From Escherichia coli (GTDB lineage: Bacteria; Pseudomonadota; Gammaproteobacteria; Enterobacterales; Enterobacteriaceae): a DNA stretch of 64,000 nucleotides. The stretch is from assembly GCF_003334255.1 (NCBI RefSeq), contig NZ_QOWU01000021.1; one strand, given 5' to 3'. Of the stretch, positions 55,932-57,717 are shown one piece after another (the stretch's first letter is position 1; each line of letters opens with the position of its first letter). The notes below the pieces were generated by a model. It made no database searches, was not told the origin of the DNA, and worked only from the letters and a program-made list of their open reading frames with translations. A program made the translations under genes and the position numbers.

Positions 55932-57717
55932 ATGGAGCTTGCTACTACGCAGTCAGTATTGATGCAAATTCAACCGACAATTCAGCGTTTTGCCAGAATG
56001 CTTGCCAGCGTTTTGCAGCTTGAGGTTGAGATCGTTGATGAAAACTTGTGTCGCGTTGCCGGAACGGGCGCGTATGGGAAGTTTCTTGGTCGCCAGTTGA
56101 GCGGCAACTCACGCCTGCTCCGCCACGTCCTGGAAACGAAAACTGAAAAAGTTGTGACACAGTCTCGCTTCGATCCCCTTTGCGAAGGTTGCGATAGTAA
56201 AGAAAATTGCCGCGAAAAAGCATTTCTGGGTACGCCTGTCATTTTACAGGATCGTTGTGTTGGGGTGATAAGTTTGATTGCCGTTACCCACGAGCAACAA
56301 GAGCATATCAGTGATAATTTACGCGAATTTTCTGATTGTGTTCGCCATATATCCACCATTTTTGTTTCGAAACTTCTGGAGGATCAGGGGCCAGGAGATA
56401 ACATCAGTAAAATATTTGCGACCATGATCGATAATATGGATCAGGGCGTATTAGTTGTAGATGATGAAAATCGGGTTCAGTTTGTTAATCAGACTGCCTT
56501 AAAAACACTTGGTGTTGTGCAAAATAATATTATTGGGAAACCTATCCGTTTCAGACCATTAACATTTGAGAGTAATTTTACCCATGGACATATGCAGCAT
56601 ATTGTTTCATGGGACGATAAAAGTGAATTAATCATTGGTCAATTGCATAACATTCAGGGCCGACAATTATTTTTAATGGCGTTTCACCAATCGCATACCA
56701 GTTTTTCTGTAGCAAATGCACCTGATGAACCGCATATTGAACAATTGGTTGGCGAGTGCCGTGTTATGCGGCAATTAAAACGACTCATTAGCCGTATTGC
56801 ACCCAGCCCATCCAGCGTTATGGTGGTTGGTGAAAGCGGCACGGGTAAAGAAGTCGTCGCCCGTGCAATCCATAAGTTGAGCGGAAGACGGAATAAACCC
56901 TTTATTGCTATCAACTGTGCCGCGATTCCGGAGCAGCTTCTGGAGAGCGAACTGTTCGGTTATGTTAAAGGTGCATTTACTGGCGCTTCTGCCAACGGTA
57001 AAACAGGGTTGATTCAGGCGGCGAATACGGGCACGCTGTTTCTCGATGAAATAGGTGATATGCCATTAATGTTGCAGGCTAAATTACTGCGCGCTATTGA
57101 GGCACGTGAAATTCTGCCGATTGGTGCCAGTAGCCCAATACAAGTCGACATTCGCATCATTTCTGCAACTAATCAGAATTTGGCCCAGTTCATTGCCGAA
57201 GGTAAATTCCGCGAAGATCTCTTCTACCGACTTAATGTTATCCCGATAACTCTGCCACCGCTGCGTGAACGTCAGGAAGATATTGAACTATTGGTGCATT
57301 ACTTTTTACATCTGCATACCCGTCGTCTGGGATCGGTTTATCCTGGCATTGCTCCCGATGTCGTCGAAATATTGCGTAAGCATCGTTGGCCCGGAAACCT
57401 GCGCGAGTTAAGCAATTTGATGGAATATCTGGTTAACGTGGTTCCTTCAGGTGAAGTTATCGACAGCACGCTATTGCCGCCAAATCTGCTGAATAATGGC
57501 ACAACGGAGCAAAGTGATGTAACAGAGGTCAGAGGTCAGTGAGGCGCACCTGTCACTCGATGATGCGGGCGGCACGGCGCTGGAGGAGATGGAAAAGCAA
57601 ATGATCCGCGAGGCGCTTTCACGTCATAACAGCAAGAAGCAAGTTGCTGATGAACTGGGCATCGGCATTGCTACGCTCTATCGCAAGATTAAGAAATATG
57701 AGTTGTTAAACACATAA
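55932..57717 (+). pseudogene. ygeV: sigma-54-dependent enhancer-binding regulator YgeV, interrupted by a 7-bp tandem duplication near the 3' end (ORF stops at 57542; HTH tail continues in +1 frame to 57717)
   Basis: ORF 55932..57542 (536 aa) carries the AAA+ sigma-54 interaction domain (GESGTGKE, GAFTGA, ESELFGY); gaggtca|gaggtca at 57525-57538 creates TGA at 57540; downstream frame encodes ...SLDDAGGTALEEMEKQMIREALSRHNSKKQVADELGIGIATLYRKIKKYELLNT (Fis-type HTH); single-copy version would give 592 aa. Confidence 0.75.

Follow-up and report, generated by a model that had tools for sequence, protein, structure and literature searches.

The gene ygeV of Escherichia coli encodes YgeV (UacR/IsrR), the putative sigma-54 activator of a purine-catabolic cluster now linked to the anaerobic breakdown of uric acid by bacteria of the gut. 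In the stretch of E. coli DNA analyzed here (64,000 nucleotides, hereafter the window), a 7-bp tandem duplication interrupts its reading frame. The locus thus raises the question of whether the duplication is a genuine allele, which parts of the regulator it leaves, and whether the truncated protein could still activate the cluster.

Published work assigns YgeV the role of putative activator of the purine cluster (PMC10602906; 10.1101/2022.07.24.501321). The cluster genes form the "YgeV iModulon", and ygfT expression is lower in a ygeV mutant (PMC10602906). Citing Iwadate and Kato 2019, 10.1101/2022.07.24.501321 gives ygeV, aegA, and ygfT as required for anaerobic, formate-dependent urate consumption. 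YgeV has been renamed IsrR and connected with the indole-dependent control of virulence in EHEC and Citrobacter; UniRef lists the intact protein as [quoted passage not shown]. ChIP-seq located sigma-54 sites upstream of xdhA, ygeW, ygfK, and ygfT (PMC4591121), and all four published sites are present and unchanged in the window. The promoters in Table 1 were placed from these sites and not from a generic sigma-54 consensus scan of the window, which returned 48 matches against 43 expected and was therefore not above chance. No other transcription factor is annotated between xdhA and uacT, in keeping with the suggestion of the preliminary description, made from the sequence alone, that YgeV is the only dedicated regulator in the cluster.

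On direct reading, the lesion is a 17-nt run of period 7 with 10 matched positions, CAGAGGTCAGAGGTCAG, and the interval 57520-57545 is written taa CAGAGGT CAGAGGT CAG tga gg. Several registers are possible for the same run; the equivalent one given in the preliminary description, gaggtca at 57525-57531 and again at 57532-57538, is indeed present (gaggtca twice over 57525-57538). In the wild type, there is one unit, CAG-AGGT-CAG, flanked by CAG...CAG microhomology (1.4 units). As a bare pattern, an exact 7-bp tandem duplication is within chance, since four were observed in the window against approximately 3.45 expected under a first-order Markov model; the 17-nt run itself is unique in the window, being its one lag-7 run of 10 or more positions, whereas 0.05 such runs would be expected for lag 7 (1.16 if lags 5-12 are pooled). 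The significance of the duplication derives from the comparison with other genomes and not from the pattern itself.

The truncated product consists of wild-type residues 1-533 (with Y136C), followed by the novel residues R-G-Q and the TGA at 57540-57542, i.e., the frame changes after residue 533, and translation stops three codons on. Wild-type YgeV comprises, according to Pfam, a PAS domain (162-206), Sigma54_activat (272-439), AAA_lid_14 (445-528), and HTH_8 (548-587), so that the break lies in linker sequence, past the AAA+ lid and ahead of the HTH. In the 536-aa product, PF00158 is matched at residues 272-439 (E 1.7e-70), with the Walker A motif GESGTGKE and the GAFTGA loop legible, and the AAA+ lid PF25601 is complete at residues 445-528 (E 6.5e-21; model positions 1-83 of 87). 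In the N-terminal part, residues 162-206 are matched by PAS_8 (E 1.3e-6) as well as by PAS (E 8e-5), and residues 65-127 weakly by GAF. The Pfam search of this product returned no HTH family match, the C-terminal Fis-type HTH PF02954 being missing, and no Response_reg (receiver) match; the sensor is PAS/GAF-like. Judged by these domains, the product appears to have every bEBP feature except the D domain, and we infer at the domain level that its sigma-54-activating function would be kept.

The missing segment persists out of frame. The orphan frame lies at +1 relative to the truncated ORF, with codons at 57541-57714, an end of ...GIGIATLYRKIKKYELLNT, and a stop at 57715-57717; it corresponds to wild-type residues 535-592 and is the same as K-12 in sequence. 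Since this frame is intact, the lesion is young when set against the pace at which 177 nt would decay. The ORF ending ...DVTEVRGQ, the 58 further codons encoding a Fis-type HTH tail that matches HTH_8, and the retention of the AAA+ domain with loss of the HTH all agree with the preliminary description, which had reported the ending ...VTEVRGQ after 536 codons.

Table 1. Coordinates of the ygeV lesion, the reading frames around it, and the sigma-54 promoters in the window
Feature	Position	Strand	Description	Evidence
Tandem duplication	57523..57539	+	7 bp, CAGAGGT CAGAGGT then CAG	Direct reading, K-12 alignment
Truncated ygeV (uacR/isrR) ORF	55932..57542	+	536 aa	ORF list, Pfam
Orphaned C-terminal coding remnant	57541..57717	+	58 codons and stop	HTH_8 E 4e-15; HTH_50 E 1.4e-9
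42-aa ORF	57589..57717	+	Wild-type M551-T592, in essence HTH_8; sole start-codon ORF in the orphan frame	ORF list
SNP, Y136C	56338..56338	+	TAT to TGT vs K-12; marks main duplication haplotype, also in intact 592-aa alleles	
ygeW sigma-54 promoter	55547..55563	-	CTGGCACACTTATTGTT; intact, divergent intergenic region, presumed YgeV target	ChIP-seq site OS30, PMC4591121
xdhA sigma-54 promoter	61475..61491	-	CTGGCGTAAATCTTGCC; intact	ChIP-seq site OS29, PMC4591121
ygfK sigma-54 promoter	45731..45747	-	GTGGTGCGATTGTTGCT; intact	ChIP-seq site OS31, PMC4591121
Sigma-54 site upstream of ygfT	30724..30740	+	TATGCCCGTTTATTGCA; intact	ChIP-seq site OS32, PMC4591121

Window positions 57380-57700 (321 bases) were used as a megablast query against 5,426 complete E. 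coli genomes. The locus was matched in 5,276 of them with a top identity of 97.8% (314/321), a ceiling that fits the 7-nt gap seen in the aligned matches; relative to K-12 MG1655 and O157:H16 98-3133, the entire deficit of the query consists of this gap. Accordingly, the duplication is absent by megablast from K-12, O157:H16 98-3133, and every one of the 5,276 complete genomes that matched, which have a single copy where the window has two. That K-12 might carry the same duplication and a 536-aa YgeV, a possibility entertained in the preliminary description, is false: K-12 ygeV has a single copy and is annotated with 1779 nt and 592 aa. Translation of the window after deletion of one unit gives 592 aa, identical to K-12 YgeV (WP_000417791.1) except for Y136C, and the expectation that removing one copy restores the K-12 length is thus borne out. 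The gene is orthologous and syntenic to its K-12 counterpart, sitting between ygeW and xdhC as in K-12 and yielding a near-identical protein once restored.

Elsewhere, the window is close to K-12. Positions 1-49379 differ from it by eight substitutions and no indel; the window thus has no general excess of frameshifts, and Shigella-like genome decay or an error-rich assembly can be rejected as a general cause of the lesion. The final 14.5 kb differs by four substitutions and two indels, and the ygeV tail downstream of the duplication shows no difference. The second indel lies in the C-run of actS, which is C8 in the window and C7 in K-12; the C8 frameshift was considered as a clade marker and discarded, the 76-aa ActS fragment being found in 283 blocks in unrelated contexts. 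The strain is evidently not a K-12 derivative, since codon 246 of prfB starts with G and encodes Ala, the K-12-specific Thr246 being missing.

A protein of exactly this 536-aa sequence is present on 95 contigs of the public protein collection (148 index blocks, with NCBI, ENA, and Logan as sources), and its NCBI accessions are CAM2909736.1 and CUK02112.1. Look-ups by the exact protein led to 12 loci, all with the same junction, among them isolate-type assemblies at NCBI, metagenomes assembled with SPAdes or MEGAHIT, and Logan assemblies; L004-L013, which are drawn from SPAdes, MEGAHIT, Logan, and NCBI assemblies alike, carry it identically. One of them, L006 (GCA_965136505.1, CBCRYS010000015.1, 77 kb), equals the window over 13.6 kb with no difference and probably represents the source isolate itself or a clone-mate. 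A junction scan of JGI metagenome contigs gave no matches. The duplication is a real, rare, natural E. coli frameshift allele, and the assembly error that had been held out as its possible undoing is countered by the 95 contigs and 12 independently assembled loci. No description of the YgeV 7-bp duplication allele was found in the searchable literature; the allele itself is already in public sequence data, and it belongs to an already known kind, strain-level inactivation by slipped-strand duplication.

With regard to function, bEBPs dock at upstream activating sequences through their HTH (PMC7175178), and untethered bEBPs are approximately 10-fold weaker activators even when over-produced and devoid of the inhibitory domain (PMC3844500). 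Because of these two observations, the best reading of the duplication allele, and the probable one, is that it abolishes or strongly reduces activation of the cluster. The 536-aa YgeV would keep the PAS sensor and the AAA+ module while lacking the Fis-type HTH that tethers it to the enhancer; an untethered protein would no longer be concentrated locally or assemble into oligomers at the promoters, and the sigma-54 promoters of ygeW, xdhA, ygfK, and ygfT would then be non-inducible or weakly so. The allele would act as a loss-of-function or strongly hypomorphic form of the regulator, in effect a young pseudogene.

Further lesions are found within the duplication lineage. The largest duplication subclone (L004, 14 of the 24 contigs examined) carries the nonsense mutation ygeW L155*, and among the derivatives of the lineage, P0014 has GAFTGA changed to GAFTGV, and P0013 has a 7-aa linker deletion; all three lesions fit decay. 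Other natural truncations of E. coli ygeV, which leave 492, 444/446, 436/438, or 524 aa, reach contig counts of up to 25-28. These likewise represent strain-level inactivation of the same regulator; however, their breaks lie inside the AAA+ core or the lid, and they are plainly null, whereas the 7-bp duplication removes only the HTH. Loss of YgeV is thus tolerated in nature, since clearly null truncations (492, 444/446, and 436/438 aa) reach similar contig counts.

The alternative that fares best, although it is unlikely, is that truncated YgeV is still active and enhancer-independent, oligomerizing on signal and contacting the sigma-54 holoenzyme from solution like FlgR, CtcC, and DctD250. 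Activation would then be weaker, delocalized, and possibly promiscuous at sigma-54 promoters, and the form would be favored in some gut niches. The exact position of the cut, between the AAA+ lid and the HTH with PF00158 and PF25601 complete, is in favor of this proposal. Natural group-5 bEBPs without a D domain exist (PMC7175178), and from solution, DctD250 can activate almost every sigma-54 promoter (PMC3844500). The duplication allele is also found on several haplotypes and on 95 contigs, compared with 15 for the intact C136 allele (P0003), while intact K-12-type YgeV is found on at least 1000; the 95 versus 15 contigs, or the recurrence on several haplotypes, could reflect positive selection rather than neutral decay.

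Neither comparison, however, carries over fully. Like DctD250, truncated YgeV retains the AAA+ sigma-54-interaction module and has lost the C-terminal HTH (PMC3844500), and, by analogy, loss of enhancer tethering and a weaker, concentration-dependent, non-specific activation would be expected. Further engineered forms of this type are PspF-deltaHTH and HTH mutants of NtrC, which reportedly "activate from solution" (Jovanovic et al. 1999; North and Kustu 1997). In contrast to the engineered DctD250, which is devoid of the N-terminal sensory region, the present form arose through a natural 7-bp duplication, is at native expression level, and keeps that region; because this regulatory region is retained, YgeV would not be constitutive like DctD250. 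Even over-expressed, solution-acting forms are about 10-fold weaker (PMC3844500). The group-5 proteins, Helicobacter FlgR and Chlamydia CtcC, resemble truncated YgeV in combining regulatory and AAA+ domains without a D domain (PMC7175178). However, FlgR and CtcC have receiver domains in an architecture fixed in the species, whereas truncated YgeV has a PAS-type sensor, an HTH coding sequence that is intact just out of frame, and a DBD-less state that is not conserved, each of the 5,276 complete E. coli genomes that have the locus encoding the HTH in frame. Because it lacks a receiver, because its DBD-less state is not conserved, and because its HTH coding sequence persists out of frame, the YgeV of the window ought to be kept apart from group 5, the bEBPs that naturally lack a DBD. 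Furthermore, two points speak against activity from solution: the lineage gathers lesions both in ygeW, a target gene (L155*), and within the GAFTGA loop itself (P0014), and the truncations that destroy the AAA+ module are about as widespread. Truncated YgeV may nevertheless have residual or altered activity.

The duplication is inferred to have originated by slippage, as a slipped-strand, microhomology-mediated duplication of CAGAGGT between the two CAG triplets of CAG-AGGT-CAG. The wild-type sequence offers a 3-bp direct repeat at a spacing of 7 nt, which is the minimal substrate for such an event. Templating by a hairpin or quasi-palindrome was ruled out, the DNA folds of both strands at the site being no better than those of shuffled sequences (z approximately +2), and simple slippage on the 3-bp microhomology is what is left because no such structure is present. 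The duplication lies in the linker-coding part of ygeV and is carried by a natural, rare E. coli lineage. The CTGG repeat of lacI, reportedly described by Farabaugh et al. in 1978 as a slipped-strand frameshift hot spot, is comparable in that one repeat unit is gained between short direct repeats to give a frameshift, with apparent recurrence or reversion among relatives. The two differ in that the lacI tract has three units, whereas wild-type ygeV has 1.4 units with 3-bp microhomology and is seen in states of one and two copies only.

The distribution of the duplication among haplotypes bears on a second alternative, in which the 7-mer would be a reversible, contingency-like slippage switch, with YgeV on at one copy and off or altered at two, and selection picking the state. 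This is an improbable reading, although the copy number is incongruent with the flanking sequence. L016, a Logan assembly from ERR3331265, has the two private SNPs of the window (dpaL G270S and xdhB I105L), actS C8, and C136. It carries the unit once, encodes an intact 592-aa YgeV, and differs from the window across 13.8 kb by nothing but the 7 bp. Conversely, L004, L005, and L007 have the duplication and lack the two private SNPs. All four combinations of SNP and duplication therefore occur, and this four-gamete violation requires repeated gain, precise reversion, or recombination. The ...VTEVRGQ ending is also present on the Y136 K-12-like contigs L011-L013, on the intermediate haplotype L009, and on the two divergent haplotypes L008 and L010. 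L010 equals the complete genome C5 from ygeV onward apart from the 7 bp, and its haplotype-specific SNPs flank the duplication 83 bp upstream and 535 bp downstream. The gain at the ygeV site may be recurrent.

Other features of the distribution oppose such a switch. Among approximately 15 billion proteins, alleles with zero, three, or four copies are absent on both backgrounds tested, so that only one or two copies occur; this rules out a hypervariable repeat tract, and copy number does not range over several states as it does in a multi-state contingency locus. A 7-mer present only twice is a poor substrate for slippage, and the duplication is in none of the complete genomes and in none of the JGI metagenomes. 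Recombination could also account for the incongruence, since K-12-like donors have no SNPs between 56338 and 58799, and tracts there would be invisible. Finally, all divergent-haplotype cases come from metagenome assemblies, presumably of short-read libraries, in which the sequences of co-resident strains may have been merged into a chimeric consensus. The fuller proposal, that the CAGAGGT site is gained recurrently and lost precisely, toggling tethered and DBD-less YgeV, with the truncated form selected in the human gut, is correspondingly doubtful. If it were true, the selected form would silence anaerobic urate/purine catabolism (or IsrR-linked signaling) to advantage or would gain enhancer-independent activity.

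Two further explanations have hardly any likelihood. A sequencing or assembly artefact of the window genome might be suspected from the homopolymer indel in actS (C8 vs C7), a typical error class, and from the single copy in the near-identical L016; however, a non-homopolymer 7-bp duplication is not a typical error on any platform, the shared junction comes from at least four assembly pipelines, and the L006 contig, identical to the window, is recorded in two samples. Bypass of the frameshift, either by prfB-like +1 ribosomal frameshifting at CAG-UGA-G or through a separate 42-aa HTH peptide, with DNA binding partly kept, could draw on the +1 position of the HTH frame, the GAGG-rich stretch (SD-like GAGGU) before the stop, and the GGAGG just upstream of the ATG at 57589, yet it is implausible from the sequence: a +1 shift would require the P-site CAG to re-pair with AGU, which it cannot do, leaving no slippery codon; the site is not conserved, all other genomes being in frame; independent translation of the 42-aa ORF is doubtful because GGAGG ends only 2 nt before the ATG, far under the usual optimum; and an HTH peptide made separately would be unable to hold the AAA+ module at its enhancer.

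Loss of regulator function by the duplication remains the preferred reading, and the allele is most likely an ordinary strain-level loss of function, an otherwise ordinary case of strain-specific gene inactivation by slipped-strand duplication. What raises it slightly above a routine pseudogene is the clean loss of the DNA-binding domain alone, together with the incongruence of one and two copies among near-identical relatives. A natural allele that lacks only this domain would be a ready-made genetic tool and a strain-level marker, and the pair formed by the window/L006 and L016, seven bases apart, would allow a near-isogenic comparison. Carriers of the duplication are predicted to be poor urate degraders, which would be relevant to microbiome work on urate homeostasis.

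The sole difference between the window at positions 49932-63700 and L016, a fetched public locus (Logan ERR3331265), is the 7-bp unit of the ygeV duplication. Over these 13.8 kb, the two sequences are otherwise the same, while YgeV is intact at 592 aa in L016 vs 536 aa in the window. The window and L016 form a natural near-isogenic pair. Two substitutions, DpaL G270S and XdhB I105L, are confined among the compared genomes to the window, L016 and a third locus, L006 (GCA_965136505.1), and both of the genes that bear them, dpaL and xdhB, belong to the YgeV-associated cluster. The coordinates of these and the other features are collected below.

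Sequence features of the window and their coordinates
Feature	Window position	Strand	Description
prfB, first base of RF2 codon 246	26172	+	G (Ala) in window; A (Thr) in K-12
dpaL/ygeX substitution	53401		Nonsynonymous, DpaL G270S
ygeW nonsense change (in public loci L004 and L009)	Equivalent of 54990	-	A-to-C, TTA to TGA, YgeW L155*
ygeV-xdhC intergenic palindrome	57729-57748		Perfect 20-nt palindrome CCGGCCTGAATTCAGGCCGG, separating convergent ygeV and xdhC
xdhB substitution	58799		Nonsynonymous, XdhB I105L
actS/ygeR C-run	62045-62052 (gene 61834-62590)	+	C8; C7 in K-12

The extra cytosine in actS, which is also common to the window, L006 and L016, shifts the frame of the amidase activator ActS and leaves two ORFs, one of 76 aa (LysM) and the other of 116 aa (M23). 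The 76-aa fragment is found in 283 blocks of the public protein collection, with many unrelated downstream contexts; therefore, the homopolymer is a site of recurrent slippage and/or recurrent sequencing error. The palindrome between ygeV and xdhC is unchanged from K-12 and is probably a bidirectional terminator.

Despite an identity of about 99.98% to K-12 across the length of the window, the strain is not a K-12 derivative, since RF2 codon 246 encodes Ala and the Thr246 variant, known to be specific to K-12, is absent.

Secondary changes accompany the same duplication in other public alleles. In P0014, present on 3 contigs, the sigma-54 contact loop GAFTGA is altered to GAFTGV; P0013 carries a 7-aa deletion in the linker, and P0032 a D-to-Y substitution located between the PAS and AAA+ domains. 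Separately, the YgeW L155* change represents a second lesion of the duplication-bearing lineage, and the gene it hits, ygeW, is the first in the divergent sigma-54 operon. Of the 24 contigs that were read for truncated YgeV, 14 are represented by L004, one of the two loci with this change.

Several further independent natural truncations of ygeV were found in public E. coli contigs (alleles P0033-P0045). The 492-aa class is frameshifted at about residue 469, which fits a 1-nt deletion; among its members, P0035 is found on 25 contigs, and P0038 lies on a contig of 4.9 Mb. The 444/446-aa truncations occur on 28 and 13 contigs, and the remaining lengths are 436/438 aa and 524 aa. In the public locus L023 (GCA_900449925.1, UGEM01000004.1), ygeV, xdhA, xdhB and ygeW are each broken into several short ORFs, a pattern of gene splitting that is usual in long-read assemblies rich in indel errors. 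This case serves as a warning that artefacts exist among the 'truncated' public proteins.
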